Positions 1 through 64,000 are shown, numbered from the stretch's first letter. The stretch is 64,000 nucleotides of DNA from an uncultured Actinomycetes bacterium (GCA_963809395.1 CAWEJM010000010.1:117776-181775), one strand, 5' to 3'. The notes: generated by a model from the letters alone, not told the origin. Numbers and translations: made by a program.

Positions 1-93
1 GATCCCGTTGTACGGGAGTGTACGCACGCCCTCGGTGGCCGTGCAGGGGATCGCGGTTTCTGGGACATAGCGATCGACGAGACACGAGGAGGG

Positions 94-645
94 ATGTTGG
101 AGAAGGCATCGTTGGGCAAGCTTCTGCTGGCTACGGCCTATCTGGAGGGTGACTTCGTGCTCCGCTCCGGGAGGCGCAGCAAGTACTATCTGGACAAGTA
201 TCTCTTCGAGACCGAGCCGCAGGTGCTGCGCGGGATCGTCTACGAGATGGCCATGATGATCCGCGATCGATTGGCTTCGGGCGAGGAATACCAGCGCCTG
301 GCGGCGCCGGAGCTGGGTGGCGTGGTGCTGGGAGCGGGGCTCTCTCTGGAGCTGGGTCTGCCGCTGCTGCTGGTGCGGAAGCTCTCCAAGGAGTACGGCA
401 CCAGCAAGCGCATCGAGGGACGGTACTGCCCGGGTGAGGAGGTGGCGTTGATCGAGGATATCGTGACGTCGGCGGGCGCGGCCATAATGGCGGCCGAGGC
501 TCTGCGCGAAGCCGGCATCGTGGTCAAGGACCTCTATTGCGTCGTGGATCGGGAGGAGGGCGGTGCCGAGGCAGCGACCGCCGCGGGACTCACTCTGCGC
601 CCCTTGTTCACCTCGTCGGAGCTGGGAATCGCTCCCCGGCCCTGA
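94..645 (+). CDS. pyrE: orotate phosphoribosyltransferase
   Basis: 183-aa intact ORF; OPRTase/PRPP-binding motifs (GDFVLRSGRRSKYYLD, VALIEDIVTSAG). Confidence 0.85.
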   Translation: MLEKASLGKLLLATAYLEGDFVLRSGRRSKYYLDKYLFETEPQVLRGIVYEMAMMIRDRLASGEEYQRLAAPELGGVVLGAGLSLELGLPLLLVRKLSKEYGTSKRIEGRYCPGEEVALIEDIVTSAGAAIMAAEALREAGIVVKDLYCVVDREEGGAEAATAAGLTLRPLFTSSELGIAPRP

Positions 646-746
646 AATACAGGTTTTTGCCTCTATCCGAGCGAAGAAACCGCTTGTGCGTGACTCGTGG
701 GATTTGCTAAGGTACAGATGTACCGCGTGGACAAAGGGAGGTAACT

Positions 747-1019
747 GTGACCAAAGCCGAGTTTGTGGACAAGCTTGCAGCAAAGAGTGGTCTCACCAAG
801 AAAGACGCCGCCAGCGTAGTGGATGCGTTCGTGGATGTGGTCACCGACTCGCTCAAGAAGGGGGAGGACGTTCAGTTCACCGGTTTCGGCAAGTTCTACG
901 TGCAGAAGCGCGAGGCCAGGGAAGGGATCAACCCGCAGACCAAGGCCAAGATCAAGATTCCGGCCACCACTGTTCCCAAGTTCAGCGCGGGCCTCGCTCT
1001 CAAGAACGCCGTCAAGTGA
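747..1019 (+). CDS. hup: HU family DNA-binding protein
   Basis: 90-aa ORF, GTG start after RBS aaagggagg; classic HU sequence (MTKAEFVDKLA...GFGKF...NPQTKAKIKIPA). Confidence 0.9.
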   Translation: MTKAEFVDKLAAKSGLTKKDAASVVDAFVDVVTDSLKKGEDVQFTGFGKFYVQKREAREGINPQTKAKIKIPATTVPKFSAGLALKNAVK

Positions 1020-1045
1020 TCCTGCACGCATGACAGGAGTCACCG

Positions 1046-1072
1046 GGGCCGCGTCATGCGGCCCTTTCTCTT
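1046..1072 (+). terminator. rho-independent terminator after hup
   Basis: GGGCCGC-gtcat-GCGGCCC hairpin followed by T-rich tract tttctcttcc. Confidence 0.6.
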
Positions 1073-1203
1073 CCTGGAGACGGACCGCAAGCCTGCCGAC
1101 GGGACCGACAAGAAAGGTGACGTAGGTTGGCCGAGGAACGGTTAGCGGGGAACATTTCGCCGATCGTCTGCTGGAGGCGATCGAGGCGAAGCGATCGCAC
1201 GTC

Positions 1204-2043
1204 GTGCTGGGCCTCGACCCCGACTACGACCTACTCCCTCCTGAGATCCGAGCCGCCTACCCGCGAGCCGAGTACGAAACCGACGAGCAGATGAAGGTCG
1301 CCTGCTACCGGCAGTTCCTCAGCGGCTTGCTGCACCGCCTGCGCGGGGAGGCGGTGGCCGTCAAGATCCAGATCGCCTACTTCGAGGCCCTGGGGGCGCG
1401 TGGCTACGAGCTGTACGAGAACATGGTCGCCCTGGCGAAGGACATGGGCTATCTGGTCATAGCCGACGTAAAGCGGGGCGACATCGGCAGCACGGCCGAG
1501 GCCTATGCCCGCGCTCATCTGGATGTGGCCGGCGCGGACGCGGTGACCGTCAATCCGTACTTCGGCACCGACGGACTGGAGCCGTTCTTCCGCAGGGCGC
1601 GAGAGGCCGGCAAGGGGGTGTTCGTGCTGGTCAAGACCTCCAATCCCAGCTCCGCGGAGATACAGGATCTGCCCTTGGCCTCGGGCGGCCCGCTGTACGG
1701 CCGGGTGGCGGAACTGGTGAACGAATGGGGTGAGGGGACCGGGGGGAGCCGCGGTTACCGGGCGGTGGGAGCGGTCGTGGGCGGGACTCATCCCGAACAG
1801 GGAGCCGCGCTGCGCCTGCGGATGCCGGGAGTGCCTCTGCTCATACCCGGGTACGGGGCCCAAGGCGCCCAGGCCGGCGATCTCGCGGCTCTGTTCGATG
1901 CGAAGGGCACCGGGGCGGTGGTCAATTCAGCCCGTGCCATCCTCTATGCCTACCGGAAACGACCGGGCGACTGGCAGGAGGCGGCCGTGATCGAGGCTCG
2001 GGAGATGAAGGCAGCGTTGTGGACGGCGGCGGGTCGTGGCTAG
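1204..2043 (+). CDS. pyrF: orotidine 5'-phosphate decarboxylase (long type 2 form)
   Basis: 279-aa ORF; ODCase type 2 motifs (VVLGLDPD, IADVKRGDIGSTAEAY); open frame continues upstream to about 1126, so true N-terminus is uncertain. Confidence 0.8.
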   Translation: MLGLDPDYDLLPPEIRAAYPRAEYETDEQMKVACYRQFLSGLLHRLRGEAVAVKIQIAYFEALGARGYELYENMVALAKDMGYLVIADVKRGDIGSTAEAYARAHLDVAGADAVTVNPYFGTDGLEPFFRRAREAGKGVFVLVKTSNPSSAEIQDLPLASGGPLYGRVAELVNEWGEGTGGSRGYRAVGAVVGGTHPEQGAALRLRMPGVPLLIPGYGAQGAQAGDLAALFDAKGTGAVVNSARAILYAYRKRPGDWQEAAVIEAREMKAALWTAAGRG

Positions 2044-2254
2044 AGAGGACGATCCTCTCGACGAGTGGGGCGACCAGGGCGACCAGAGCGCGATTTCGTG
2101 GGTGCGTACTCTCGTGCTCCCGCTCGCGGTGCTGGTGGTGTTCGTTGCGGTCGTGAGCGGTCTGGTCCTGGGCGGGGTGGTGCAGGGGCACGAGTCGCGC
2201 GTCGGTCCCGACCACGCGCCGACGACGCGGCCGACGGTGGAGATCGCTCCCTGA
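2036..2254 (+). CDS. small hypothetical membrane protein
   Basis: 72-aa ORF with one clear hydrophobic TM stretch (LVLPLAVLVVFVAVVSGLVLGGVV); GTG start overlaps pyrF stop; weak support. Confidence 0.25.
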   Translation: MAREDDPLDEWGDQGDQSAISWVRTLVLPLAVLVVFVAVVSGLVLGGVVQGHESRVGPDHAPTTRPTVEIAP

Positions 2255-2275
2255 AACCGGAGGGGGACGGCCCGC

Positions 2276-2983
2276 CTAGACCGGGCTCTGTCGCCTGATC
2301 TGCTCGTAGAGGAATATGAGCACCAGATCGACGAAGAGGATGATGAACGATTCCACCAGTATCTGGCTGAGCGGCAGAAGGATGAACACTCCGCCGGCCT
2401 TCTGGTAGTAGAGGTCATAGAGGCTGTGCAGACCGAAATACACCACCTGTAGGACGACGAAGATGATCACGACGGTGGCCCACCGGCGGCCCAGTAGCTG
2501 GACGCTCCTTCGCAGGGCCGGGAAGAAGGCCAGCTGCTCAAACACGATGACGTAGTCGGCGAAGACGATGAGGATGGCCACCACCAGCACTGCGCCCGCA
2601 ACCAGTTGCTCGAGGACGGTGCTCGCAGGGACCGCCAGGGGCAACGTCCACACCACCAGGTTCGCGAACAGGTAGAAGAGTGACAGTCTTCCCGCTTCTT
2701 CCCAGCTGCGCGGCGCCAGAGGATAACCCAGGCCGGCGATGGCGCGGAAGTAGGGAGCCCTGATCATGGCGGCGAGGGCGCAGACCGCCAGCCCAACGAA
2801 GACGGCCACAGCGAGAGCGGGGCTGAACGAGAATCCGGTGAAGAAGTGATCCCGGACGTACTGCCAGCGGTCGAAGTTGGCGGCGACGAACGTACTCCAG
2901 CGCAGGCTCTCGCCGTTGGCTGCGTAGACCGCGAGAAAGGCGATCGTGTTGATCACTGCCAGCGCCAGGGGATAGACGATCAA
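2276..2983 (-). CDS. hypothetical polytopic membrane protein
   Basis: 235-aa ORF with multiple hydrophobic helices; divergent from dacB-like gene. Confidence 0.5.
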   Translation of the reverse strand: MIVYPLALAVINTIAFLAVYAANGESLRWSTFVAANFDRWQYVRDHFFTGFSFSPALAVAVFVGLAVCALAAMIRAPYFRAIAGLGYPLAPRSWEEAGRLSLFYLFANLVVWTLPLAVPASTVLEQLVAGAVLVVAILIVFADYVIVFEQLAFFPALRRSVQLLGRRWATVVIIFVVLQVVYFGLHSLYDLYYQKAGGVFILLPLSQILVESFIILFVDLVLIFLYEQIRRQSPV

Positions 2984-3157
2984 CCACTGCTTCCGGATCA
3001 GCCGGTCCCAGGCGCGGCGCAGTACCTCGGCGATCTTCGCACCTCCCTTGTGATGCTCTTGTCAGTGGCGAAGTATAACATCGGGCCTTTGGCTTCCCGG
3101 CGGGCGCGGGCGCGCCGGCGGCGAGACTGCCGAGGGGCCCATGCTATACTCCGGCAC

Positions 3158-4469
3158 ATGATGCCTCTGACAGCCAGACGGGGGTGGCTGGGCCCGCTCC
3201 TGGTCTTCGCGCTCGTTCTCGCGCTGATGGTATCGGTCCCGACCGGCATCGCGCGGGGCAGTACGACCACCACCTTTGCAGCCGTTTCTCCGTCCGGCGC
3301 GACCGAGGGCCAGCCGTCCGTTGTCGGCTCCTCCTCGGTCGGCTCGCTGACCGCGATCTTCACCGTTCGCGCGAAGGACCTGGGCGATTTTGCCGCCGAT
3401 GTTCCCACGATAAGGTCTCCGGCGGCCATCCTCATCAACGCCGATACAGGCAAGGTCCTTTACGAGCGCAAGGCCGACGTACGCAGGCCCATGGCGTCGA
3501 CCACCAAGATAATGACCGGCATTCTCATTCTGGAGAACATGGATCTAAAGACTCCCGTCACCGTGTCCAAGATCGCTGCCCAGACCCCGGAGCCTGCCAC
3601 CTGGCTCCGTGAGGGCGACGTATTGACCGTGGAGCAGCTGCTCTACGCCCTGCTGCTGCGAAGCGCCAACTCAGCCGCCGTGGCCCTGGCCGAAGCCTGC
3701 TCGGGAAGTGTGGAGGCGTTTGTGGCCATGATGAACGCCAAGGCGAAAGAACTGGGGATGAACGACACGCAGTTCGTCAATCCCAACGGTCTGGACAAGA
3801 CCGGTCACTACTCCACCGCCGCCGACATGGCCCGGCTGGGGCAGTACGCCATGAAGAACGAGGAGTTCCGCAAGATCGTGAGCACTCTGAGCTACACGCT
3901 CTCGTTGCCGGGGCGGTCGGCGCCGCTGGTCTTCGAGAACCACAACGTGCTGCTGGGCCGGCTCGGTTGGGTGACGGGCATCAAGACCGGGCTGACCCCC
4001 AAGGCCGAGCAGTGCCTCGTCGGCTTCGGGCACCAAAGATGGAGTATCGGTCATCAGCGTCGTACTGGGGCAGCCGGTGCCGGAGGTGTGTTGGGACGAG
4101 AGCCAGGCCCTCATGGAGTACGGTCTCGCTCAGTATCGTCACGTGACTCTCATGAACGAAGGGGTAGTGGTGGCCGAGACCGCCGTTCCGTATCAGCTCG
4201 ACGGGCGTGTAGGACTGGTCACCGCGGGCTCCGTGGAGATGGATCTATACAAGGACGACGAGGTCACCACCTCGATCGCCCTCGACCGGCCCTTGGTTCT
4301 TCCGGTGACGGAGGGAGAGTCGTTTGGCCGAGTCGTGCTCACCGTGGGGGGGACAACCGTGGGGACGGTGGATCTGGTGGCAGACACCTCATTTGGGAAG
4401 ACCACTCTCGGATCGAAACTTGGATACTACTGGGATCGCTTCACCAGATGGATTGGACGGGTGACGTAG
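3158..4469 (+). CDS. D-alanyl-D-alanine carboxypeptidase (serine-type, PBP5/6 family), frameshifted in this assembly
   Basis: Signal peptide, then SxxK (ASTTKIM), SxN (SANSAA), KTG motifs; frame jumps +1 near 4025 (CLVGFG vs expected [19 protein letters not shown], extra G in gtcggcttcg); C-terminal domain continues in ORF 4077..4469. Confidence 0.8.
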
Positions 4470-4473: not shown

Positions 4474-5419
4474 ATGATACTCACGGTGACCCTCAATCCG
4501 GCCCTCGACCGGACCATGACCGTCCCCAACTTTCAGGCCGGCTTCCGCCACAGGGCGACGGACACGGTCATCCTGCCCGGCGGCAAAGGCATCAACGTCG
4601 CTCGAGCGGTCAAGACCTTGGGGCGGCCGGTCATCGCTACCGGCTTCCTGGGAGGGCGCAAGGGCGATCAGATCCTGGCCGACCTGAACGGCGAAGGCAT
4701 CCTCAGCGATTTCGTGCGCATCGAGGACGAATCGAGATTGTCCACCGCGGTGGTCGACCCGGCGACGAACGCCGTCACTGAGATCACCGAGCATGGCCCT
4801 GAGATCCGGCCGGAAGAGATGGACCTGCTGTACGAGAAGCTGGAGTACCTGGGCAAGGCGGCCGACATCGTGATCATAGCCGGCAGTGTTCCCCGCGGCT
4901 TGGATGACGACTGTTACGCTCAGATGATCCAACGGCTGCGGCGGCTGGGGGTGAAGATCTTCTTCTACACGTATGGGGAGCCGCTCCGTCAAGGCATCAA
5001 AGCCGGCCCCGACTACGTGTTTCCCAAGCTGGTGGAGGCGGAGAAGGTCATCGGGTATGAGTTCACCGGCATGGAGGATCGCATCCAAGCGGCTCGGCGC
5101 ATGCGAGAGATGGGGGGCGGTTCCGTGGTGGTAACCTTCCGCTATGGGTGCGTTGCTGAACTGGCCGAGGAAGGCGGCAGCCGCACGTTCATCGGCACGA
5201 TGCCGAAAGTGGACGTCATCTCGCCTATGGGCTGGGGTGACGCGCTGGTAGGGGGATACGCCGTGCGTTTGATGGAAGGCGACGCGCCGCTCGGAGTGTC
5301 TGCGTTTTGGCCTCGGCTGTGCGGCAGCCAACTTGATCCGATACGGGGCGGGGTTGTTCTCTCCCGCCGATGCGGTGGAGTTGGCCCGGCGGGGTCGAAT
5401 TGGAGGAGGTGCCTGCTGA
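4474..5419 (+). CDS. PfkB-family sugar kinase (1-phosphofructokinase/tagatose-6-P kinase-like), frameshifted
   Basis: N-terminus [14 protein letters not shown] typical of FruK/LacC; GWGDALVGG anion hole; extra G near 5290 moves true C-terminus ([22 protein letters not shown]...) into another frame ending at TGA 5417-5419; apparent fusion to guaA in ORF track is artifact. Confidence 0.75.
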
Positions 5420-5436
5420 AAAGTAAGGCCGACACC

Positions 5437-6965
5437 GTCAAGAAGATCCTGGTCGTCGATTTCGGCGGCCAGTACGCGCAGCTCATCACCCGGCGGGTGC
5501 GGGAGTGCCGGGTCTATTCGGAGCTCATCCCCTACGACACTCCGGCGGCCGACATCAAGGCCGCGGCTCCGGCGGGGCTGATCCTGTCCGGAGGTCCGCG
5601 CAGCGTCAATGATCCCGACGCGCCCGTCGGTCGACCCGGAGATCTTCGACCTTGGGTGTTCCGGTGCTGGGCATCTGCTACGGCCTGCAGCTCATGGCCA
5701 AGCTCAAGGGTGGGCTGGTAGCGCGCACCGAACAGGCGGAGTACGGGGGCACGGCGGTCAAGGTGACCGAGCCGGGTGCCCTATTCGGCGGCCTTCCCGC
5801 CGACATGGTCTGTTGGATGAGCCACGGGGACTCGGTGCTGGAAGTGCCGCCGGGTTTCGCGGGCATCGCCCAGAGTCCCTGCCTGCCGGTCGCAGCCATG
5901 GAGGACCGGGGAGCCAAGCTCTACGGGGTCCAGTTCCATCCTGAGGTGCGGCACACGGAATACGGGCAGGACATTCTTAAGAATTTCCTGTACAAGATCT
6001 GCGACATAGCCCCCACCTGGACGCCGGTCTCGATCATCGAGGAGGCGGTCGCTCGCATCCAGGCCCAGGTCGGGAGCGAGCGGGTGGTGTGCGGGCTTTC
6101 CGGCGGCGTGGACTCAGCCGTAGCCGCGCTTCTCACCTACAAGGCGGTGGGCGATCAACTCACCTGCATCTTCGTCGACCATGGGTTCATGCGCAAGAAC
6201 GAGGGCGAGCAGGTGGAGAAGACCTTCCAGAGACACTTCCACGTGCCGCTGGTGCACGTGCGGGCGCAGGAGCGCTTTCTGGCCAAGCTGGCGGGTGTCT
6301 CGGAGCCGGAGCAGAAGCGGAAGATCATCGGCGAGGAGTTCATCCGCACGTTCGAAGAGGAATCGCACAAGCTGGGCAAGGCCCGTTTCCTGGTGCAGGG
6401 AACCCTGTACCCCGACGTGATCGAGTCGGGCACGAGGGAGGCGGCCAAGATCAAGTCCCACCACAACGTCGGCGGTCTGCCGGAAGACATCGACTTCGAG
6501 TTGGTGGAGCCGTTGCGCATGCTGTTCAAGGATGAGGTGCGGGTGGTGGGCGAGGAGCTGGGCATGCCGGACGACATGGTCTGGCGGCAACCCTTCCCGG
6601 GCCCGGGCTTGGCCATCCGCATCATCGGCGACGTGACCAAAGAGCGGCTGCAGATCCTGCAAGACGCCGATGCCGTCCTCCTCGACGAGATCAAGCGGGC
6701 AGGGTTCTACCGGCAGGTGTGGCAGTCGTTCGCGGTGTTGCCGGCCATCCGCAGCGTTGGAGTCATGGGCGATGAGCGCACCTATGCCTATCCCATCGTG
6801 GTGCGGGCGGTCACGTCCGACGACGCCATGACGGCCGACTGGGCCCGTCTTCCCTACGACCTCCTGGAACGGATCTCCAACCGCATCATCAACGAAGTGC
6901 CCGGTGTGAACCGGGTCGTGCTCGACATCTCCAGCAAACCGCCCTCCACCATCGAATGGGAGTAG
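5437..6965 (+). CDS. guaA: GMP synthase (glutamine-hydrolysing)
   Basis: GATase domain ([30 protein letters not shown]) plus ATP-PPase domain (SGGVDSAV) and C-terminal dimerisation domain ending IEWE; two frameshifts within 40 bp around 5625-5655; start codon unclear. Confidence 0.85.
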
Positions 6966-9073: not shown

Positions 9074-9722
9074 GTGGTGAATGTTGGCTTCACGGCACAC
9101 AGCAGGTCTATGAACCAGGGCAGCGCACCCATCTACACGGCTCGCGGCGCACGCCCGAGGCCGGCCCCGGACGAGGCCGCGGCCCGGCCTAGGTGGCGCG
9201 GACCGATCATTCTCGCAGTGGTGATGGTCGGGTGGATGTTCTTCGTGCTCGCCCTGGCCGCGATAGCCGCTCCAACGGGGACGGGCGCGGAGACGACTCG
9301 TTCAGATCGGCAGGGGAGTGGCCTTCACGGCGCCTGGCGGGTGGACCTCCGCCGCCGACATCTGGGACGTGGGCCCGGACGCCGTCTCGCTGCAGAAGGC
9401 GGGGGCGCTGGTGGCGTTCGCAGCCGAGGCGTACGACGGCTCCGGCGAGGACCTGCTCGCCGCGGAAACCAAGGAACTCGAGGCCGAGTTCGATTCGTAT
9501 CGCGCGCTGCCGGTCGCTTCTACGACGATCGCGGGAGATGTACCGGCTTTGGTCGTGCTCTTCTCCGGCACGGCTGACTCCGGTCGACTGGAGGGTGAAT
9601 TGGTGGTGGCGGCCCGCGGAGGGACCGGAGTGGCCATGCTCGCCGTCGCCCCGGTCGGGCAGTTGCGCAGTGTGCAGGGCGATCTCGACCGCATGCTGAG
9701 CACGATGGTGGTGCCTCGATGA
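9074..9722 (+). CDS. hypothetical single-pass membrane protein, frameshifted
   Basis: N-terminal TM helix (ILAVVMVGWMFFVLALAAIAAP) in ORF 9074, extracytoplasmic domain continues in ORF 9318..9722 after frameshift near 9300; stop overlaps prsW start (ATGA). Confidence 0.45.
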
Positions 9723-10867
9723 GCCTCACCCGTCAGCCCGCCTATTGGCTCTTTCTTGTGTTCTTGGCCGGATGTTCCTTGATCGTGGGAGGGGAGCAGT
9801 TGTCGTATCTGGGCTCACAGCCCGGCGCTTGGCTGCTTTCCCTGGTGCTCCTGGCGGCAACGGCCATCCCTGCTGGGATCATCATCTACCGCTTGGATCA
9901 GTTCGAGCCCGAGCCTGCTTCTCTGATCGCCGTGGCCCTTCTGTGGGGCGGGATCGTGGCAGTGACGTTCGCCGCCATCACCAATTCGTACGCCTTGGGC
10001 TTTCTTCAGCACGTTCTTCCCGCGGCGACGGTCGACTCCTGGGGAGCTGCCATCGTGGCGCCGATCAATGAGGAGTTCTACAAGGGAGCGGGCCTGGTCA
10101 TCATCTATCTGATGGCCCGGACCGAGTTCGACGGGCTCATGGACGGGCTCGTCTACGGCGCCATGATCGGATTGGGTTTCCAGGTGGTCGAGAACGTGCA
10201 GTACTTCGTGCACGCGGCCTCGGAATCCGGAGCCGGCCAGTTGGGTCCTGTCGTGAGCATGTACTTCGTGCGGGTCGTTCTCGCGGGCTTGTATAGTCAC
10301 ACGTTGTTCAGCGGTCTGATGGGTTTCGGCTTCGCGTACGCGGTGACCCAGCGGGAGGCGTCGCGGCGCAGGCGGCTGAGCGTGGCGGCGTTGTTCGTCG
10401 CGTTGGCGTGGGCTGCGCACTTCGTGTGGAACTCTCCTTGGTTGGAGTCGCTCATGGGGCGGGGCGGCGGGTCGTTCATCCTGGTCTTCCTGGTCAAGGG
10501 GGTACCGTTCCTTGTCTTCTTGGCGATCCTGGCCGTCGTCGCGCGCCGGCGCGAAGGACAGGCGTTCGCCCGGCTTGTGGCCGCGGAGGTGGGAAGCGAC
10601 GTGCTGAACGAGGCGGAGTTCCGCATTCTGCAGAGCGGGCGCAGGCGAAGGGCCGCCCTCCGGCAGGTCAAGCGGAGCAGGGGCCGCGGCGCCAGGCGGC
10701 TGCTCAAACGGCTGCAACGGGAGCAGATGAACTTGGCTCTCTTCCACACCAAGGTGCGAGAGTCCGACCACCCGGCTCTCGAGGCTCAGCGCGACACGAT
10801 CAGGGCGCTCAAAGCGAGGCTGGTAGCGAGCGCGGGTTCTACAATCCCAACATCGTGGACAACGTGA
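9719..10867 (+). CDS. prsW: PrsW-family intramembrane glutamic metalloprotease
   Basis: 382-aa polytopic membrane ORF with PrsW signature motifs (INEEFYKGAG = EExxK; HFVWN); Arg-rich cytoplasmic C-terminal tail. Confidence 0.75.
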   Translation: MSLTRQPAYWLFLVFLAGCSLIVGGEQLSYLGSQPGAWLLSLVLLAATAIPAGIIIYRLDQFEPEPASLIAVALLWGGIVAVTFAAITNSYALGFLQHVLPAATVDSWGAAIVAPINEEFYKGAGLVIIYLMARTEFDGLMDGLVYGAMIGLGFQVVENVQYFVHAASESGAGQLGPVVSMYFVRVVLAGLYSHTLFSGLMGFGFAYAVTQREASRRRRLSVAALFVALAWAAHFVWNSPWLESLMGRGGGSFILVFLVKGVPFLVFLAILAVVARRREGQAFARLVAAEVGSDVLNEAEFRILQSGRRRRAALRQVKRSRGRGARRLLKRLQREQMNLALFHTKVRESDHPALEAQRDTIRALKARLVASAGSTIPTSWTT

Positions 10868-11859: not shown

Positions 11860-14760
<2,901 letters not shown>

Positions 14761-14767
<7 letters not shown>

Positions 14768-17250: not shown

Positions 17251-17289
17251 GCCGGGTCTCCTATTCGGTGTGGCGCTCATCGGTCGCGC

Positions 17290-20087: not shown

Positions 20088-20101
20088 GCGGTGTCGCCCC
20101 G

Positions 20102-40657: not shown

Positions 40658-40789
40658 TGGACCATGGCATCACCGCCGGGAAGGAGGCCCACGTGAAGCC
40701 ACAGACAGAGACTCGGGAGCAGCGAGACCGGCAGACAGAGACTGGGAGTCCGACACTCTGATCCTGCCGACCCCAAGCCACTCGCAGAG

Positions 40790-44850: not shown

Positions 44851-44978
44851 TGTCGCACCGGGTGTCGAACTGGGCCGTACGCCCTGCAGTGTATGGGGTG
44901 GCATGCGAGAATGCAACAACCATGAGGACTGCTACGGGAGTCAAGGGGAGCGGTAGGGTGAGCGACCGGCGTGATGAA

Positions 44979-46203: not shown

Positions 46204-46228
46204 GCCGTTCTTTCCTCGACCTGGAGAC

Positions 46229-48537: not shown

Positions 48538-48542
48538 GCCGG

Positions 48543-50291: not shown

Positions 50292-50308
50292 GCAACGGGA
50301 GGTCTAGA

Positions 50309-51136: not shown

Positions 51137-51146
51137 GGAAGGTTAA

Positions 51147-52573: not shown

Positions 52574-52633
52574 GCTCTGTATCAAGCGTGTTATCTGTTT
52601 TGACAAGTGCCGATTTGACGCTGTGAGGAGGTC

Positions 52634-55314
52634 GTGATGCCCGTCGACGCCGAGCCGACTGGGGCGCAGCCGGTGACTCTCACCCTTAACGGGCAGGAGA
52701 TCCAGGCGCTTCCCGGCCAGACTATTCTGGAGGTGGCGCGCGATGCGGGCGTCGACATCCCCACGCTTTGCCACGATCCTCGTCTCGAACCGTACGGCGC
52801 CTGCCGCCTGTGCCTGGTTGAGGTCGAGGGGGCTCGTGGACCTCTGGCCGCCTGTGGGACCGCCATCCGCGAGGGCATGAGCATCCAGACCCACAGCGAG
52901 AAGATCCGCAAGCTGCGGAAGTTCGTGTTGGAACTGCTGCTGACCAACCACCCGCTGGATTGCCCCGTGTGCGAGGCCGCGGGCGATTGTCGCCTGCAGG
53001 ACTACGCATACGAATACCTCGTCGACATGGTGCCTTGGGGCTGGCGTGCGCCGGTGTCCGGCGATGCCGGGGACCATCCGAACGTGGCCCACTTCAGCAG
53101 CCGCTGCATCCTCTGCGGAAGATGCGTCCGCATCTGTCGGGAAGTCATGTCCATCGGGTGCTGGGGCTATCGTGAAACGGGGCTATGAGAGCGAGGTCGA
53201 CACGCCCTATCGCCTGCCGCTGCAGGAGGTGGGTTGCGTGTCGTGCGGGCAGTGCGTGAGCACCTGCCCGGTCGGATCGGTTATCGGCCAGCGGACGCCT
53301 CAGGGGGCGCGGCAGTGGCAGACAGGCAAGACTGTCACCACCTGCTCGTACTGCGCCGACGGCTGCCGGCTGGTGCTGCACAGCTATCGCGGCAAGGTGG
53401 TTCGCGTCGCCTCAGAACTCGAGAAGGGCCTCAACGCCGGCAACCTGTGCGTCAAGGGGCGCTTCGGGATGGGCTACGCCAACGCCCCCGACCGGCTCAC
53501 CCAGCCACTGGTGAGGAATGCCGAGGGACTTCTGGAAGAGGCCTCTTGGGAGGAGGCTCTCGCGCGCGTCGTCGAGAAGGCCGCGGCCGTCCGGAACGAG
53601 CGGGGCGGCCAGGCTCTTGCCGCGGTGTGCGGCACGCACTGCACCAACGAAGCTGCATATCTGCTACAGAAGCTGGTGCGCACGCTTCTCGGGTCGAACA
53701 ACATCGACGCGATCGACAGCGCCGAACAGGCGGCGTCCGACGAAGCCCTGACTGCCGCGTTCGGTCTGGCCGCGGCGACGAACTCCCGCAAGGATCTGGC
53801 CGCGGCCGATGTGATCTTGGTCATCGGCGCGAATCTCACCGAGTCCGACCCGGTGCTGGCGCTTGACGTGATCAAGGCTCTTCGTAAGGGCAAGACCGTG
53901 ATCGTGATCGACCCGCGCACGACGGAGCTGGCGCGGCGCGCGACGCTGCACCTGGCCGTGAAGCCCGGGACGGATCTTGCGGCCCTTCGCGGGATCCTGC
54001 GGCATATTGTCGACCTCGGGCCTGCAGGACGGCGAGTTCATCGGCGCGCGCACCGAGGGTTTTGCGGCCCTCCAGGCTTCGCTCGAAGGGGTGGACGTAG
54101 CGGCTGAGGCCGCCGCGTGCGGGGTGGATGCCGATGCGCTGCGGGCGGCGGCCGTGGCCTACGGCCAGGCCGCCGCCGCCGCTATCCTGTACGGCCCGGG
54201 GCTGGCAGGAGGCCTCGGGGGCTCGCTCGCGCCCAGGCAGTCGCAACCGTACGTGCCGTCGCCGACTTGGCCCTGCTCACCGGCAACGTCGGACGCCCGG
54301 GCACCGGCGTGTACCCGCTGCGCTCCGGCGCCAACTCGCAGGGACTCAGCGACATGGGAGTGCGTCCCGACCGCCTGCCTGGAGGAGCGGCTTGTCCGGA
54401 GCGCGGAGCGCCCGGCAAGACGACGGCCCAGATACTCGAGGCCGCGGAAGCCGGGGAAGTCGGTTTCCTGTATGTCGTGGGAGCCGACCCGGCGCTGGCG
54501 CTTGCCGACGAGGCCCGAGTCCGAAAGGCTCTCGAAGGAGTGGACTTCCTGGTGGTCCAAGAGAGCTTCCTCAGCGACACGGCGCGCTACGCTCGACGTG
54601 GTACTCCCGGCGGCTGTGGCCGGAGAGGACGAGGGGACTTTCACCAACGTCGAGCGCTTCGTACAGAGAGTGCGCCCGGCTGCGCCCACCCTCGGCAAGA
54701 GCCTTCCCGACTGGAAGATCATCCAGGAGATCGCGAACCGGTTGGGCGCTGACTGGTCGTACGCTACGCCGGCGGACGTCATGCGCGAGATAGCTGAGGT
54801 GGTCCCGGCCTACAGAGGCATTTCATATGTCAGGCTCGAGGACGAAGCGCTGCAGTGGCCGTGTCCCGGCGCCGAGCACCCCGGCACCCCGATCCTGCAT
54901 GCTGAGGAGTTCACGCGGGGCAAAGGGTCTTTCGCGGCGGTCGAAGGTACGCCGTCCCGGGCATCGCCGGCGACGGACGCCGACTATCCCTTCGTGCTGC
55001 TCACCGGCTCGGTGCTCGAACACCACGGAACGGGCGTGAGGTCGCGGCGTTCGCCCGGCCTGACCAAGCTGGTGGAGGAGGCTCGGTTGGAGATCAACCC
55101 GGCCGACGCCGAGCGTCTCGGCGTTGCCGACGGCGATCGCGTGAGGGTGGTCGGTCGCACCCTCGCGGCGATCGAACTGCCTGCGTGGGTCACCGGTCGC
55201 GTGCCGGCTGGAGTGGTGTTCGTGCCCGGCTTCTCACCGGCGGCGCCTGTCACTCGCCTCCTGGAGAGCGATGCGAGCGGAGTACCGATGGTGCAGGTCG
55301 AGCGCCTGGTCTAG
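52634..55314 (+). CDS. fdhA: formate dehydrogenase catalytic subunit (Mo/W-bisPGD, Cys-type, NuoG-like N-terminus), frameshifted
   Basis: N-terminal 2Fe-2S ferredoxin and 4Fe-4S domains (CHDPRLEPYGACRLCLV, HPLDCPVCEAAGDCRLQ), MopB domain with active-site Cys TTCSYCADGCRL (no in-frame TGA, so not Sec), FDH motif RSGANSQG, C-terminal MGD cap; several frameshifts across ORFs 52634, 53046, 53977, 54117. Confidence 0.8.
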
Positions 55315-57784
55315 CCTGTCGCCCCAGTCAGCGAAGCGCCCGGCGAGCCGTCCTTGTCCTTCTTGCGCCCCGCGTCGCGCGCCTTCTCGGTGAGGACGGC
55401 AAGCCGATCGACGATCAGCCGGTTGATCGATCCCTTGGGATAGACGCCCTTTGCGCCCAGCGTCCCCGCCGGGGTGCCGGTGAGGACGGTGATGCCCTCA
55501 TCGATGGTGGAGATCGGGAAGATGTGGAAGCGACCCTTGCCCACAGCATCCCGCACTCGGTCGCTCAGCATGAGGTTGCGCACGTTGGCCTTGGGGATGA
55601 GCACGCCCTCGTCGCCCTTCAGACCCAGAGCCTGGCAGACGGCGAAATACCCCTCGATCTTCTCGTTGACGCCCCCGATGGCCTGGACCTGACCCCGTTG
55701 GTTCACCGACCCGGTGACGGCAAAGCGCTGCTGGATGGGCACGCCGGAAAGGGACGACAGCAAGGAGTACAGCTCCGCGGAGGAGGCGCTGTCGCCCTCC
55801 ACTCCCGAATACGATTGTTCGAAGACCAGGCGGGCACTCAGCGACAATGGGCGGTCGGAGGCATACTTGGCTCCCAGGTAGCCGGCCAGGATCAAGACGC
55901 CTTTGGAGTGGATGGGACCTCCCATATCCACCTCGCGCTCGATGTCGATCAGCTCCCCCTCGCCCAGGCGGTGCGTGGCCGTGATCCGGCTGGGTCGGCC
56001 GAACGCGTAGTCGCCGATGGACGAGACCGAAAGACCGTTTATCTGGCCGACCACGGCGCCCCGGGTGTCGACCATGACCGTGGCGTCGGCGATCATCTCC
56101 CTGACCCGCTCTTCCACGCGGTTTGAGCGATAGATGCGCTGATCGATGGCCTTCTGCACGTGCTCCCGCTTGACCAGAGGCTTTCTCCGGCTCTGGCGGC
56201 CAAGTTGGGCCCAGTAGGAGGCTTCGCTCACGAGGTCGACCACGTCCAGGAAACGGGTGGTCATCTTGCGCTGGTCCTCGACCAGGCGAGAGCAGTGCTC
56301 GATCACGCGGGCTACGCCCTCGGGGGAGAAGGAGGCGAGATCTTTGCGGTGGCAGATGTGGCTGACGAAACGGGCATAGAGCTGCTCGTTCTCCGGGGTG
56401 CGATCGACGACCGTGTCGAAGTCGGCCTTCACCTTGAACAGTTCCTGGAAGTCGGGGTCCTGAGTGAAGAGCAGGTAGTAGATGAAGGGTTCCCCGATCA
56501 GTACGATCTTGGCTTTGAACGGGATCGGCTCCGGGTCAAGAGTGGCGGTGGTGGCAAAACCCATCTGCTGGGCGACGTCCTCCACTCGGATCTCGCCGGT
56601 CTTGAGCGTGCGCTTGAGCGCGTCCCAGGAATAGGGTTTCAGAAGGACGTCCCGGGCTTCGAGGACGAGAAAGCCGCCGTTGGCCTTGTGGAGGGCTCCC
56701 GGCTTGATCATGTTGAAGTCGGTGAACAGGGCGCCGAACTGAGCTTGATGGTCGATGCGACCCACCAGGTTCTGTAGCACGGGGTTGCTCTCGCTGACCA
56801 CCGGAGCTCCGGTCTCGGCGGAGTTGTCCACCAGAACGTTGATCCGGTACTTGCGGAACGCGCCTTCACCCTTCTGCCGAGCAGGCATGGGGATGCCCAT
56901 GAACATGACGGGAGTCTCTTCGTCCGACTTCTTGAACTCGTCGGCGTTGTCAACCACATCCCGGAGGACGGCCTCGAGGTATTCCACGATCTCGGTCACG
57001 TCGCACCATTTGTCGCACGCCTCCCGCACGAGATGCTTGGCGGCGAACGTGGTCACCTCGCGGTCGAGCTCGCGCATCGCCTCCCTGCCGGCACGCTCGT
57101 CCTGGCGGACGAGGCGCATGACCTGCTGCAGCTCATCGTTGAGGCTCTCGAGGCCCTCGTCGATGCGCTTCTGCTCCTCGGCCGGCAGAGCCTCGTAGAC
57201 CTCCCGAGACATGGTCTCGCCCTCGGCGGTCTTGGGGGCGAAAGCGAGTCCGGCTGGGGTGCGCACCATCGTGAGGCTCAAAGACTCCGCCTTCTTGCTC
57301 AGAGCCCCAAGCTTCGTCTCCTGCTTCTCGCTGACCTGTTGGGCGATCTCCCGCTTTTGCTTCTCGTATTCCTCGCCCGTCGAACGCCTGGGTGATGGCG
57401 GCCTGGAGGTCTTCGACCAGCTTCTCCATGTCCTTGCGGAACTCCTCGGCCTTTGCCGGCGGGCATGCGAATCGCGTTGGGCTGATACGGTTTGGCGAAG
57501 TTGTGTACGTAGACCCAGTCGTCCGGCGCCGGCCGAGAGGCTGCCTGCCGGGAAAGGAAATCGTGGATGGTGCTGGCCTTTCCCGTCCCGGTGGGGCCGA
57601 CCGCGAAGATGTTGTAGCCGTCGCTGTGGATACCCATTCCAAACTCTACCGAGGACACGGCTCGGGGCTGACCGATGATCTCGGTGAGCTGGGGCAGATC
57701 GGCAGTGGTCTTGAAGGCAAGGGCTGAGACGTCGCAGGCTCGGTAGATGTCGGCGGGGCCGAGCTCTGGAGGGACTCTGACCAT
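55311..57784 (-). CDS. Lon-like ATP-dependent protease (COG1067/LonB-like, S16 domain), frameshifted
   Basis: N-terminal AAA+ module (IIGQPRAVSSVEF..NIFAVGPTGTGKAS) in ORF 57299..57784; C-terminal Lon S16 domain in ORF 55311..57911; frameshifts near 57300-57640. Confidence 0.7.
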
Positions 57785-57882
57785 GTGGTCCTCCGGATCG
57801 ATGGAATGATGCGCAGATGGACTTGTTCTGCAAGGAACGGTAGCAGTCTACCCAGTCCCGTGTCGAGAAAACCACCGAATGA

Positions 57883-57971
<89 letters not shown>

Positions 57972-58104: not shown

Positions 58105-58719
58105 ATGAAGCTGCCGGAGCGACAGAGGCTGATACTGCAGGTCATCGAGGCCGCGGTCGAGCAGCAGGGGTATCCGCCCACGGTCCGGGAGATCGGTGCC
58201 GCTGTCGGACTCTGCTCTCCCGCGTCGGTGCAGAGTCACCTCGGATCCCTTGAAGCGAAAGGCTATATCCGCCGGGGCACGTCCAAACGGCGAGCCCTTG
58301 AAGTGGTACGGCCCTCCGGTCGAGAGCAGGCCTTCGCCGCTGTCGCCGGGGGTATGCACGTTCCTCTGGTCGGACGGGTGGCCGCCGGCCTGCCTCTCCT
58401 CGCGGAGGAGAACATCGAAGAATCCATCGACATCCCTCACTTCCTGGGCGAGCGGGGATGCTTCGCCTTGCGCGTCACCGGCACCTCCATGATCAATGCC
58501 GGGATTCTCGACGGAGACATCGTCGTGGTCAAGCGCCAAGACACTGCCGACGATGGCGACATCGTGGTGGCCATGCTCGGAGACGAGGCTACGCTCAAGC
58601 GCTTCTACCGGGAGGCCGACCAGGTCCGGCTTCAACCGGAGAACGACTCGATGGAGCCTATCTTCACCCGGCATCCGCGGATCGCGGGCAAGGTGACCGG
58701 GGTTCTGCGGAAGCTCTGA
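58105..58719 (+). CDS. lexA: LexA repressor
   Basis: Intact 204-aa ORF; N-terminal wHTH, AG cleavage site (VAGLPLL), S24 Ser/Lys dyad (GTSM ... VVKRQ). Confidence 0.9.
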   Translation: MKLPERQRLILQVIEAAVEQQGYPPTVREIGAAVGLCSPASVQSHLGSLEAKGYIRRGTSKRRALEVVRPSGREQAFAAVAGGMHVPLVGRVAAGLPLLAEENIEESIDIPHFLGERGCFALRVTGTSMINAGILDGDIVVVKRQDTADDGDIVVAMLGDEATLKRFYREADQVRLQPENDSMEPIFTRHPRIAGKVTGVLRKL

Positions 58720-58988: not shown

Positions 58989-60390
58989 ATGACGACGCAT
59001 GAGTCGCACCTCGAGTGCTTCAAAGCCTACGACGTGCGCGGCCGGGTGCCCGACCAGCTGAACGAGGGGATGGCCGAACTCATCGGCCTGGCGTACGCGA
59101 GACTGGTGCGTCCCAAACGGGTGGCTGTGGGGCACGACGTCCGGCTGACCAGCCCGTCGCTGACCGAGGCGTTGTGTCGCGGACTGACCGCCGCCGGGGT
59201 GGACGTGGTCGACATCGGACTGGTGGGGACGGAAGAGGTTTACTTCGCCACCTTCTCACTGGGACTCGACGGCGGCATCATGGTCACGGCCAGTCACAAC
59301 CCCCGCGACTACAACGGCATGAAGTTCACGCGTGAGCAGGCGCGACCCATCAGCGCCGACACCGGCCTGCTCGAGATAGAGGCGACGGTAGCGAGCGCTC
59401 TCGACGATCGGGCGGGAACGTCTCCGCGTGCGGCGAGCACGCCGATCCAAACACCGGGGACCATCAGCCAAGCCGATGCGCGCCCGCAGTACGTGGAACA
59501 TCTTCTCACCTACGTGGACATTTCCAGCCTGCGGCCTCTCAAGGTGGTGGTCAACGCCGGAAATGGCGGCGCCGGCCCCGTCATCGACATGCTGGAGGGG
59601 TCGCTGCCCTTGAAGTTCATCAAGATCAACCATGAGCCGGACGGCTCGTTCCCGCTGGGAGTGCCGAACCCGCTGCTGCCCGAAAACCGTGCGCTGACCG
59701 CTGCTGCTGTGGTGGCGGAAGGAGCCGATCTCGGGCATCGCCTGGGACGGTGATTTCGACCGTTGCTTCTTCTTCGACGAGCGCGGCGAGTTCGTCGAGG
59801 GCTATTACCTCGTGGGCCTCCTGGCCGAGCGCGCTCTACGGCGCCACCCTGGGGCGCGCATCATCCATGACCCTCGGCTTGTGTGGAATACCGAGGAGAT
59901 CGTCAAGGCAGCAGGCGGAATCCCGGTGCTCTGCAAGAGCGGCCACGCTTTCATAAAGGAGAAGATGCGGGCGGTCGACGCGGCCTACGGCGGGGAGATG
60001 TCGGCGCATCACTATTTCCGTGAGTTCTCGTACTGCGACAGTGGCATGATTCCCTGGCTCCAGGTGGTTGAGGCGATGAGCGAGGGCGGTCGTCCGCTGT
60101 CGGCCATGGTCGAAGAGAGGATCGCTCGCTATCCCGTGAGCGGCGAGATCAATCTGACCATCGCCGATCCGGTCGGGGCCCTTGCTACCATCAGGGCAGC
60201 GTACGCGCCCCAAGCGCTTGCGGTAGACGAGACCGATGGCCTTAGCATCGAGTACCCCACCTGGCGGTTCAATGTGCGCATGTCGAACACCGAACCGGTC
60301 GTGCGGGTAAACGTGGAAACCCGGGGCGACAAGGATCTGTTGCAGGTCAAGACGCGGGAGATCCTGGATCTGCTGAGGCAGGGGGAGTAA
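58989..60390 (+). CDS. phosphomannomutase/phosphoglucomutase
   Basis: Active-site TASHNP, Mg loop in second frame ([11 protein letters not shown]), sugar-binding and C-terminal domains in ORF 59812..60390; frameshifts 59740-59810. Confidence 0.8.
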
Positions 60391-60400
60391 GGCAGGGACT

Positions 60401-62141
60401 GTGAGAATCGCGCTGGCGCAGATCAATCCCACGGTCGGGGATCTGAAGGGGAACGCCCGGCTGATCGTGGAGACGGCGCAGCAGGCCGCCGCGGCCGGCG
60501 CTACGGTGGTGGCGTTTCCCGAACTAGCCATCTCCGGCTATCCCCCCGAGGATCTTCTTCTCAAGGACCATTTCTTGGTCGGCTGCCATCAGGCGCTGCT
60601 CGAGGTGGCGGCCGGCTGCAAGGACATTGTGGCTCTGGTAGGCGTGCCGCTCTTGGACGGCGGGGTGGTGTCCAACGGAGCGGCCATCCTGGCAGGGGGC
60701 GCACTGGTAGGCTCCTACCGGAAGATCTGGCTGCCAAATTACGCGGTCTTTGATGAGAAGAGGTACTTCGCCCCCGGAGACCGCGTCGTCGTGATCGAGA
60801 TGCCGGGCGTGCGTCTGGGAGTGAACATCTGCGAAGACGTCTGGGACGACTGCGGCCCCACCGAGGCGGCTGCCTTCGCGGGTGGCGCGCAGATCGTCGT
60901 CAACCTGTCGATGTCGCCCTACCACCTGGGAAAGGGCAGGGAGCGGGAGGCCATGCTCTCGCGCCGGGCCCGCGAAGCTGGGACGTATCTGTGCTATGTG
61001 AACGGCGTCGGCGGGCAGGACGAACTCGTCTTCGATGGCCAGAGCCTCGTCTTCGACCCGTCGGGCCGGCTTGTGGCCCGGGCATGCCAGTTCGACGAGC
61101 AGTTGCTGATCGTGGAGATCGATCCGGGCCCGCTGCGACCGGACCGGCCGCTCCAATTGTGCGCCCTCCGCGTGGCCTGTGGAGATCATCCCTGTGGACG
61201 CCGACCTGAGCGCCAAGGGCGGCGCCGCCGCAGCGGCGACCGCGCAGGCGTTTCCGCGGGCGGTGTGCGCGGGGGTCAGCGAGTCGCTTGCGGTCGAGGC
61301 CGAAGTCTACGCGGCGCTGCGCCTGGGAGTGAGGGACTACCTGGCCAAGAACGGCTTCCAGAAGGTCGTCATGGGCTTGAGCGGAGGGATAGACTCGGCC
61401 CTCACCGCGTGCATCGCGGCAGACGCCCTGGGAAAGGACCGAGTGACGGCCGTCTCCATGCCCTCGCGCTATTCGAGCGTGGGCACCAAGAGCGATGCCC
61501 GAGAGACGGCAGAGCGATTGGGTATCCACTTCTACGAGATTCCTATCGAGACGATGTATCGCTCCTACCTGGAGAGTCTTGCCCCCTACTTCAGCGATGA
61601 CGAGCCCGGTGTCACTGAGCAGAACATCCAGGCGCGCATTCGCGGGAATGTGCTCATGGCCCTTTCCAACAGGTTCGGATGGTTGGTCCTCACGACCGGC
61701 AACAAGAGCGAGATGGCCGTGGGCTACGCCACGCTCTATGGCGACATGGCCGGCGGTTTCGCCGCCCTCAAGGACGTGCCCAAGACGCTGGTCTACCGGC
61801 TTGCGGAGTATCGAAACTCGCTGGGTCCAGGCGCCGGCCCCATCCCGGATTCGACGATCGACCGGGCTCCGTCGGCGGAACTCGCTCCGGATCAGACCGA
61901 TCAGGACACCTTGCCTCCCTACGAGATCCTCGACCGGATCATCGAGGCGTACGTGGTCGGGGACAACAGCGTCGAGGAGATCGTGGCCCTCGGGTTGAGC
62001 AGATCCGAGGTGCAAAGGGTGGCGGCCATGATCGATGGCAACGAGTACAAACGTCGCCAGGCTCCCCCAGGAGTGCGCATCACCCCCAAAGCCTTTGGAA
62101 AGGATAGACGGCTGCCCATCACGAACCGTTACCGGGGATAG
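60401..62141 (+). CDS. nadE: glutamine-dependent NAD+ synthetase
   Basis: N-terminal nitrilase/CN-hydrolase domain ([29 protein letters not shown]), C-terminal NAD synthetase domain ([10 protein letters not shown]) in ORF 61179..62141; frameshift near 61160. Confidence 0.85.
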
Positions 62142-62206
62142 CTCGTATAATCTGCGAATACGGCGCGGATGAAGCGGATGCCTCGGCCAGGAGGCAAGGA
62201 GCAGGG

Positions 62207-63378
62207 GTGAGCGACTACGTGGTGGGCGAAAAGGGCGTTGGCGCCTCAGTGGGGACCGTCGGACTGAAGTCCGTCGAGTTCGCGTCCCTGCCCCTCGACT
62301 CGGGCGTAAACCTCGAGCCGGTCACCATCGCCTACGAGACGTATGGCCGGCTGAACGAACAACGAACGAACGCCGTCCTCATCCTGCACGCCCTTTCAGG
62401 CGACGCGCACGCCGCCGGCTACTATCCCGGAGAAGACAAGCCCGGCTGGTGGGAGACGATGATCGGGCCGGGCAAGGGCTTCGACACCGATCGCTACTTC
62501 GTCATATGCTCCAACGTCATCGGCGGCTGCAAAGGTAGCACCGGGCCCAACAGCATCGATCCGGCCACGGGGAAGGAATACGGGCTCGATTTCCCTCTTG
62601 TGACCGTGGGCGACATGGTGCGGGCCCAGAAGCTGCTCATCGACCATCTGGGGATCACGCGCCTTCTGTGCGTCTGCGGAGGCTCCATGGGGGGGATGCA
62701 GGCTCTGCAGTGGGCCGTCGCCTACCCAGAGGCAGTGGCGTCGTGCATCGCCATTGCCGCCACTCCCAAGCACTCGCCGATGCAGATCGCCTTCAACGAA
62801 GTGGGACGACAGGCCATCATGGCCGACCCGAACTGGAACGACGGGGACTACTACCAAGGGGATCCTCCCGACAGCGGGCTGACCGTCGCCCGCATGATCG
62901 GCCACATCACCTATCTTTCCGACGAGTCCATGCACGAGAAATTCGGCAGACGATTGCACGACAAGAGGGCGCTGGGTCACGACGTCACCCTTGACTTCGA
63001 GGTGGAGAGCTATCTGCGCCACCAGGGGGAGTTGTTCACGCGGCGTTTCGATGCCAATACGTATCTCTACATCACCAAAGCCCTCGACTTCTTCGACCTC
63101 AGCAATGGGCGCGGCGTACTGGTGGAGACCTTTCGCGATCTGCCGGAGGATATGCGCTTCCTTGTGATCGCGTTCAGCAGCGATTGGCTCTATCCGCCGT
63201 ACCAGTCAAAGGAGATCGTCAGGGCTCTTGAAGGGCAACGGCCTGGATTGCTCCTATCTGGAGATGAGATCCTCCTTCGGACATGATGCCTTCTTGCTGG
63301 AGAACAAGGACCTGACCCGAGTGGTGTGGCACTTCATGGAGTCCACCGCCAGACAGCGGGGGATACGCTTTGCCTAGC
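62207..63378 (+). CDS. metX: homoserine O-acetyltransferase
   Basis: MetX alpha/beta-hydrolase fold with [12 protein letters not shown] nucleophile elbow; C-terminal about 30 aa shifted near 63250. Confidence 0.85.
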
Positions 63379-64000
63379 TCGCAGGGGAAGACGGCCGAAA
63401 CGGTGCGCTGGGACCACCTGTTCATCGTGGACGTGGTGCCGCAGGGAGCACGTGTACTCGACCTCGGCTGCGGTCGAGGGACGCTGCTCAAGATGCTCAA
63501 GGAGCGCAAGGGAGTGCGCGGCACCGGCATCGAGATCGTCGAGGAGAAGGTATACGAAGCCGTCACCAAGGGGGTCACCGTCTATCACGGCGACTTCAAC
63601 GAAGGCCTTTCCTACTATCCCGATAACAGCTTCGACTACGTGGTGCTCAGCCAGACCCTGCAGGAGGCGCACGAGACCGTGACGGTCCTGCAGGGAAGCC
63701 CTTCGAGTGGGGCGCTACGTCGTCGCCAGCTTCCCCAATTTCGGTCACTGGAAGTCGCGCCTGCAGTTGCTCGTGACCGGTCGGGCACCGGTCACGGGAT
63801 CCTTGCCCTATCAGTGGTACGACACGCCCAACGTCCACTCGTTGACCATCAAGGACTTCGCCGAGTTCACCCGTGACCAGGGCATCGACATCGTGCGCCG
63901 CTTCTACGTGGGCGAGAGGGGCAGGCTGCGTTTCTGGCCGAACCTGCGGGCCGCCTACGGGGTGTTCGTGCTCGAGAAGGTGGCTGCGCCGCTCGAGAAC
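63370..64000 (+). CDS. metW: methionine biosynthesis protein MetW (SAM-MTase-like), partial at window end
   Basis: MetW-like N-terminus (VRWDHLFIVDVVPQGARVLDLGCGRGTLL); frameshift near 63690; C-terminal part (FPNFGHWKSRLQLLVTGRAPVT...) in ORF 63647 frame; overlaps metX end; runs off window. Confidence 0.75.

Follow-up and report, generated by a model that had tools for sequence, protein, structure and literature searches.

Private single-nucleotide indels in a 64-kb contig window from an uncultured actinobacterium: probable consensus errors rather than gene decay

Results

Gene content and relatives of the window

The 64,000-nucleotide (nt) stretch analyzed here (GCA_963809395.1, CAWEJM010000010.1:117776-181775; hereafter the window) is assigned to an uncultured Actinomycetes bacterium and carries many conserved genes whose reading frames are broken by single-base changes. 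An earlier reading, made from the sequence alone without database searches (the sequence-only reading), had attributed these frameshifts to assembly indel error rather than biology, and the comparisons presented below indicate that they are indeed very probably technical. Gene order is conserved with several independent short-read contigs. The first part runs dacB-pfkB-guaA-rsfS and then, further along, uvrA-hflX-M42-acd-etfAB-uvrC-ogt-rapZ-whiA-gap-pgk-tpiA-gpmI-secG-oppABCDF up to the RNase P RNA gene. The remainder comprises a gene for a 459-amino-acid (aa) protein followed by sodA and a major facilitator superfamily (MFS) gene, then murI-rph-rdgB, larC, and finally nfnAB-like-molybdopterin oxidoreductase-lon-lexA-pgm-nadE-metX-metW. 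The G+C content is 65%, and GC is strongly favored at third codon positions, as in other high-GC actinobacteria. HflX, OppB, and PyrF have their top matches (at most 95 to 97% aa identity) in metagenome contigs and metagenome-assembled genomes labeled Thermoleophilia or Actinomycetota; the top match of the window among GTDB representative genomes is the Lon-like protease, at 91% aa identity, and the top match of OppB in the metagenome scan reached 82%. Exact look-ups of the MFS, HflX, and OppB proteins returned no match. The host is an uncultured Thermoleophilia-related actinobacterium, and its underlying genome is very probably ordinary and functional, with intact genes.

For comparison, we used a set of 14 or more syntenic contigs of uncultured Thermoleophilia-like bacteria with 70 to 95% nucleotide identity, which together span essentially the whole window. 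Close relatives (L001, L166, L167, L169, and L170; 90 to 95% identity), mid-distance relatives (L002 to L005, L090, and L006; 83 to 89% identity), and more distant contigs (L007 to L014, L087, L095, and L102) were aligned at the DNA level, and the gene map alone was used for a further contig, P0123 (30.6 kb, 93% OppB). These relatives are independent short-read assemblies, and each gene compared with the window is called in them as a single full-length open reading frame (ORF). Events were merged across relatives and accepted when their flanks were clean and they were supported by the closest or by the majority of the covering relatives. The gene-level tally combined MAFFT alignments of each relative gene with the window and tblastn chaining with the collections' gene calls and ORF coordinates. 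Domain identities came from a Pfam scan of ORFs, and the RNase P RNA was compared with the Rfam consensus. Divergent segments that the alignments left unresolved were excluded from the error count: the DZR gene at 7.6 to 8.9 kb, the UvrA low-complexity insert at 12.60 to 12.66 kb, the etfB N terminus, and the nadE linker.

Census of private indels and broken genes

Gap lists between 4 and 64 kb revealed lone extra bases inside well-conserved coding sequence that were private to the window. Against 14 relatives, isolated 1-nt events of high confidence numbered 105 insertions and 13 deletions, none of which is shared by any relative, whereas relatives compared with one another by the same procedure at equal or greater divergence yielded 0 to 4 events per 4 to 21 kb. 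A three-way alignment with L001 and L002 (5.75 kb) likewise assigned five private 1-nt insertions to the window and none to either relative. At the level of genes, approximately 41 of 57 protein genes contain at least one frame-breaking event, with approximately 125 events within genes and at least 10 between them.

These counts make the figure given in the sequence-only reading, at least 35 frameshifted genes of about 60, a valid lower bound. Every gene that it had named as broken (guaA, gap, pgk, tpiA, uvrA, uvrC, murI, nadE, and etfA/B) proved to contain events, the fused ORFs that it had described are present in the ORF list (pfkB+guaA at 4474-5721, rapZ+whiA at 23933-25408, and tpiA+gpmI at 28563-29450), and the comparison of frameshift positions with orthologs that it had proposed, carried out here with related contigs, found the events to be private to the window. 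Its list of intact neighbors holds for sodA, lexA, oppB, and the nfnA-like gene but not for the MFS gene, which has an extra base at 40601. That gene is one of three ORFs, with hflX and lon, that look intact and are nevertheless shifted. Truly clean genes include those for a phosphoribosyltransferase, HU, PrsW, a polysaccharide deacetylase, a zincin, and a helix-turn-helix (HTH) regulator, as well as pyrF, rsfS, secG, oppB, sodA, the nfnA-like gene, and lexA. The RNase P RNA and three tRNA genes contain no private indels and are too short to be informative at local error rates.

Spectrum, placement, and sequence context of the events

The events comprise approximately 90% insertions and 10% deletions (about 8:1), nearly all of 1 nt, and substitutions make no detectable contribution. 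The 72 inserted bases of unambiguous identity comprise 33 C, 23 G, 10 T, and 6 A. Placement along the window is overdispersed (index of dispersion, 2.4; P = 1.5e-8), and 16% of the spacings between events are shorter than 30 nt, compared with 5% expected. Density is typically about 1 event per 550 bp and rises to about 1 per 55 bp at 30.73 to 32.59 kb, while the first 4 kb, oppB, the sodA-MFS region, and 2 kb of lon are event free. The events are also blind to genes: their codon phase is random (14/22/21), and intergenic DNA is affected as well (9 extra bases in 440 intergenic nt).

The mechanism put forward in the sequence-only reading, a G/C run lengthened by one G or C as in a typical homopolymer-length error, did not survive tabulation of the indels against homopolymer length. 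Events are not concentrated in runs. Singletons account for 71 of the 105 extra bases; at most 34 (32%) can be placed in a run of 2 or more even when all equal placements are allowed, compared with 47 to 50% for random insertion (P = 3e-4), and placement in a run of 4 or more is possible for only 3, in a window that holds 142 runs of at least 5. Among the 57 extra bases that could be placed strictly, only 9 have an identical neighbor. The transition partner, in contrast, is a neighbor in 37 of 55 cases (67%) compared with 48% by chance (P = 0.006). Sites such as 13262 (ccaTcgc), 28548 (gcGac), and 31014 (gcGaa) exemplify the insertions.

The three cases that had been worked out to the base, in dacB, pfkB, and larC, were right in position, coinciding with events at 4024-4026 and 5290-5293 and with a likely one at approximately 44985-44992, whereas the assignment of the extra base to a G/C run was not borne out. 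In dacB, the relative also has the GG run at 4026 to which an extra G had been assigned, and the difference falls in "ctt" compared with "at"; in pfkB, likewise credited with an extra G, the most parsimonious placement at approximately 5290 is a C between g and t. In larC, a single extra base of ambiguous identity plausibly separates the LFLDPW motif from the GTG start.

Tests of selection and coding integrity

Genuine decay would add nonsense mutations and multi-base deletions to the frameshifts. We removed the extra bases and padded the missing ones. Well-aligned genes treated in this way yield full-length proteins and contain no internal stop codon, and the few stops that remain after correction are confined to the ends of genes and to stretches that align poorly. 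Nearly every frame-breaking event is 1 nt long, and the lesions in corrected, well-aligned genes are 1-nt indels unaccompanied by nonsense mutations or larger deletions. With their frames restored, OppA, MurI, and RNase PH match their Pfam families in full; OppA then matches SBP_bac_5 over positions 1 to 365 of 368 with 300 bits, compared with 68 bits for the best raw ORF.

Substitutions tell the same story. Mismatches to the 90 to 95% identical relatives fall mostly at third codon positions (first/second/third: uvrA, 23/13/118; M42 peptidase, 5/2/32; tpiA, 17/6/44; oppA, 48/28/123), and shifted segments and the sequence downstream of them show the same dominance. When an outgroup was used for a relative-rate test over two regions, private substitutions numbered 64 in the window against 192 in its sister contig in one region and 127 against 348 in the other; of the window-private substitutions in coding sequence, 78% and 64%, respectively, were at third positions. 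Private substitutions that are fewer and biased to third positions argue against both relaxed selection and an excess of substitution errors, and the random codon phase together with the intergenic events points to an error process blind to genes.

Distribution of events along the window

The first 4 kb (1-4000), which hold the phosphoribosyltransferase gene, the HU gene, pyrF, a 72-aa ORF, a minus-strand ORF of 235 aa, and the 5′ part of dacB, show, in alignments with L168, L169, and L170, zero uncompensated 1-nt events relative to 95% identical relatives. Events occur throughout the rest of the window. On the plus strand, dacB (Peptidase_S11) has an extra base at 4024-4026 by alignment to relatives. 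In the pfkB and guaA segment (4474-6965, plus strand), pfkB has extra bases at approximately 5290 and 5387 and guaA at 5627 and 5651, and these insertions account for the fused ORF noted above. A hypothetical 205-aa gene (9110-9722, plus strand) follows with an extra base at 9298.

Between the PrsW gene and uvrA lies the intact polysaccharide deacetylase gene (Polysacc_deac_1; 10839-11654, minus strand). It is missing from the syntenic contigs L002 to L004, in which the gap between the PrsW gene and uvrA is about 85 nt, and is a real strain-specific gene insertion. In the uvrA and hflX segment (11860-16194, plus strand), uvrA has extra bases at 13262 and 14762 and hflX at 14810 and 14823, each supported by three of three to four of four relatives. 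Together, the extra bases at 14762, 14810, and 14823 shift the frame by +3, which makes hflX appear to be an intact ORF although its N terminus is scrambled. The low-complexity Gly/Ala/Arg-rich insert of UvrA (12600-12660) varies among strains by multiples of 3 nt. The net difference from L001 is 24 nt, and the variation in length is genuine and in frame rather than an error.

The minus-strand block at 16191-21002 contains an extra base in the M42 peptidase gene (16706) and events in the acyl-CoA dehydrogenase gene (18671, 18737, and 18834) and etfA (19860, 19923, and 19959), with a net frameshift in etfB at 20844-20902. On the plus strand, the block at 21406-25808 has events in uvrC at 22593, 22814 (+2), 22956, and 23056; in ogt at 23329, 23364 (−1), 23450, and 23830 (−1); in rapZ at 24763; and in whiA at 25311. 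The glycolytic block (25828-30411, plus strand) has events in gap (26093, 26433, and 26600), pgk (27116, 27147/27156, and 27269), tpiA (28535, 28548, and −1 at 28822), and gpmI (−1 at 28850 and +1 at 29221).

The dense patch (30732-32585, plus strand) covers the secG-oppA intergenic region, with at least 5 extra bases, and oppA, with 29 in 1.69 kb, or about 1 per 55 bp. Although it adjoins this patch, oppB (32664-33635, plus strand) has no event in 972 nt. In the rest of the operon (33646-36680, plus strand), events lie in oppC at 33695, 34046, 34051, and 34186; in oppD at 35552 (+1) and 35637 (−1); and in oppF at 35766 (−1), 36024, 36050, and 36455. The class A RNase P RNA gene (36744-37096, plus strand) scores 283.6 bits, and its four inserts relative to the Rfam consensus are common to the relatives. 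In L095, the RNase P RNA gene (from approximately 3972-4311 onward) has an extra insertion of about 120 nt near its 3′ end that the other relatives lack. The gene for the conserved 459-aa P-loop protein (37154-38541, plus strand), with 10 frame-breaking events, keeps its position between the RNase P RNA gene and sodA in relatives; its resemblance to LpxK is faint and subthreshold.

In the plus-strand segment at 39386-43475, the extra base of the MFS transporter gene at 40601 falls 8 codons short of the gene end, and events follow in a 102-aa ORF (approximately 40753), a BrkB-like gene (41611), murI (41894-42713; events at 42121, approximately 42496 [+2], and 42576), and rph (43253 [−1], 43369, and 43387). 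Once corrected, murI matches Asp_Glu_race. Within 43472-46203, the plus-strand rdgB/Ham1 gene has events at 43657 and 43903, the zincin gene and the minus-strand HTH gene are intact, and larC has the probable extra base described above.

A cluster at 46213-50283 encodes two CdhD-family proteins (similar to the CO dehydrogenase/acetyl-CoA synthase delta subunit), a radical SAM protein, and a pterin-binding, methyltransferase-like protein. L006, the closest relative there, lacks the first 2.4 kb of this cluster (46213-48609), which the more distant L014 has; this pattern suggests a variable corrinoid/methyl-transfer module. On the plus strand within 46268-50283, the two CdhD-family genes have frame changes at approximately 46480, 47333, and 47517, the radical SAM gene has events at 49476 and 49487 in its 3′ end, and the pterin-binding gene has three frame changes. 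The nfnA-like gene (50276-51136) is intact and lies upstream of the nfnB/gltD-like gene, which with the molybdopterin oxidoreductase gene occupies 51130-55314 on the plus strand; events lie at 51225, 51268, 51327, 51659, 52091 (−1), and 52251 in the former and at 53172, 54017, 54593, and 54972 in the latter. Between these two genes, a 45-nt AT-rich segment (AAGCTCTGTATCAAGCGTGTTATCTGTTTTGACAAGTGCCGATTT; 52572-52616) that is absent from L006 may act as a promoter or other regulatory element or may represent a small insertion.

The LonB-like protease gene (55311-57876, minus strand) is clean for 2 kb and then has extra bases at 57379 and 57450 in its N-terminal part, which account for an apparent N-terminal extension. 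The 866-aa lon ORF as listed (55311-57911, minus strand) overruns a tRNA-Leu gene (57883-57969, minus strand), and the real start is near 57876. After lexA (58105-58719, intact), the final plus-strand segment (58989-64000) has events in pgm/pmm (59736), nadE (approximately 61148-61170, separating the CN_hydrolase from the NAD_synthase domain), the metX-like hydrolase gene (63228), and metW (approximately 63690-63740).

Discussion

The frameshifts of the window are, with a probability that we put at roughly 93%, technical artefacts in the contig consensus and foreign to the DNA of the organism. On the question of artefact or biology, the sequence-only reading is thereby strongly supported, since the events are private, corrected genes are free of stops, the sequence is under purifying selection, and placement ignores coding. 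Moreover, gap, pgk, tpiA, gpmI, guaA, murI, nadE, and rph are all broken together, which is incompatible with a living cell.

Could the frameshifts instead be real mutations in a massively decaying genome? Many genes are affected, some repeatedly, and the lineage of the window does have real private substitutions; the large share of interrupted conserved genes recalls reductive decay as in Mycobacterium leprae or young obligate symbionts. Decaying genomes such as that of M. leprae accumulate nonsense mutations, deletions of many sizes, and a relaxed ratio of nonsynonymous to synonymous substitution rates (dN/dS), often with insertion sequence (IS) expansion, and bacterial mutation is biased toward deletion. 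Each of these hallmarks that we tested is absent from the window. Corrected, well-aligned genes lack nonsense codons and larger deletions, no IS or transposase domain was found among the ORFs scanned against Pfam, substitutions are dominated by third positions and not elevated, and the 8:1 excess of insertions runs opposite to the bacterial deletion bias. Furthermore, relatives that are 94 to 95% identical are fully intact, the genes broken simultaneously include the essential single-copy gap, pgk, tpiA, guaA, murI, and nadE, and density changes from 0 to 1 per 55 bp between adjoining genes of a single operon, oppB and oppA. We regard genuine pseudogenization as highly improbable. More improbable again is a variant in which the extra bases are real, as hundreds of recent insertions made by a homopolymer-avoiding process, and reflect either a very young mass pseudogenization or an RNA-editing or recoding system that deletes nucleotides. 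Programmed recoding, in which ribosomal frameshifting or transcriptional slippage would restore the proteins in vivo, draws on the existence of frameshifts and nothing more; none of the sites is shifted in a relative, the sequences that flank them vary and have no common slippery motif, and a single gene contains up to 29 shifts, so that its probability is practically negligible.

Among technical explanations, homopolymer-length miscalls, in which G/C runs are called too long, as happens with 454, Ion Torrent, or early Nanopore sequencing, would fit the G+C-rich inserted bases (56 of the 72 with unambiguous identity) and the minority of events that can be placed in short runs (e.g., 5387, ccC; 8959, ggG; 21307, aaaaA). 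The prevalence of singletons and a run-compatible share below chance speak against them, and Nanopore-type error is typically deletion biased and linked to homopolymers (PMC4719071; PMC9262707), whereas insertions here outnumber deletions 8:1. This origin is very unlikely. Somewhat better placed, and still unlikely, is a mixed-strain consensus or another post-assembly artefact, such as single-nucleotide polymorphism (SNP) alleles written side by side by a partial-order consensus, a run-length-encoded assembly error, or deliberate in silico corruption. Its merits are that the extra bases avoid identical neighbors, that transition partners are found beside them in excess, and that the densest patch is in oppA, the fastest-evolving gene. 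A model in which both alleles are retained, however, predicts events concentrated at third positions, whereas the codon phases (14/22/21) show no such concentration and the transition-partner neighbor is rarely at position 3; oppB, with 9.5% divergence similar to that of oppA, has no events at all. Side-by-side SNP alleles were thus unsupported by the codon-phase test, despite the transition-partner excess.

As to how an artefact would have arisen, well over a hundred extra single bases and a few missing ones would have entered the contig consensus, probably because single-molecule long reads rich in insertions, of the PacBio continuous long read (CLR) type, were combined into a consensus that was polished too little; locally low effective coverage or polishing failure would then underlie the uneven error density. 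We infer that an under-polished, PacBio CLR-like consensus is the most likely, best-fitting source, as the spectrum is one of insertions far above deletions and deletions far above substitutions, without homopolymer dependence. Raw PacBio RS II reads contain approximately 8% insertions, 3.2% deletions, and 1.7% substitutions (PMC7671305), and PacBio indel rates are independent of homopolymer length (PMC4719071); the same ranking and the independence from homopolymer length and GC content (PMC7671305; PMC4719071) are the likeness to the window. That indels left over from long reads fragment genes is well documented (PMC12007338, Kastor; PMC8442456; PMC9262707). As in other unpolished long-read assemblies, 1-nt indels in the window are patchy, are revealed by intact orthologs, and create truncated or fused ORFs and false pseudogenes; Nanopore cases differ in being dominated by homopolymers, whereas approximately 90% of the events in the window are insertions and homopolymers are avoided.

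Several observations weigh against a technical origin of this kind or limit its reach. The insertion-to-deletion ratio of 8:1 (about 8:1:0 with substitutions) exceeds the 2.5:1 of raw PacBio CLR reads, and a properly polished CLR consensus should not keep 0.2 to 2% insertions. Extra bases abut an identical base in 16 to 32% of cases compared with approximately 50% by chance, a deficit not expected from simple random insertion. This avoidance could stem from run-length-encoded consensus calling or from polishing that repairs homopolymer indels only, and the neighbor signature as a whole, with the identical base avoided and the transition partner favored, might identify the consensus software. 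In addition, some of the 1-nt events located between genes or where the alignment is poor may reflect true divergence, and the case for an artefact is a comparative one throughout.

The frameshifts of the window are a matter of data quality and not a biological feature. If genes are called on the sequence as it stands, at least 41 of the 57 would give truncated, fused, or chimeric proteins, and pseudogenes would be miscounted; the proteins distorted include those of intact-looking ORFs with scrambled termini (hflX, lon, and the MFS gene). Because the errors are context-independent insertions, homopolymer-aware fixes would miss approximately 70% of them, and reference-guided or read-based polishing is needed. 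The read-free tests used here to separate artefact from decay, namely, private-indel counts with relative controls, a nonsense check after correction, the codon-position spectrum, and the relative-rate test, are reusable. Until it is corrected, the contig is unsuited to gene calling, pseudogene counts, and pangenome or protein-family work.

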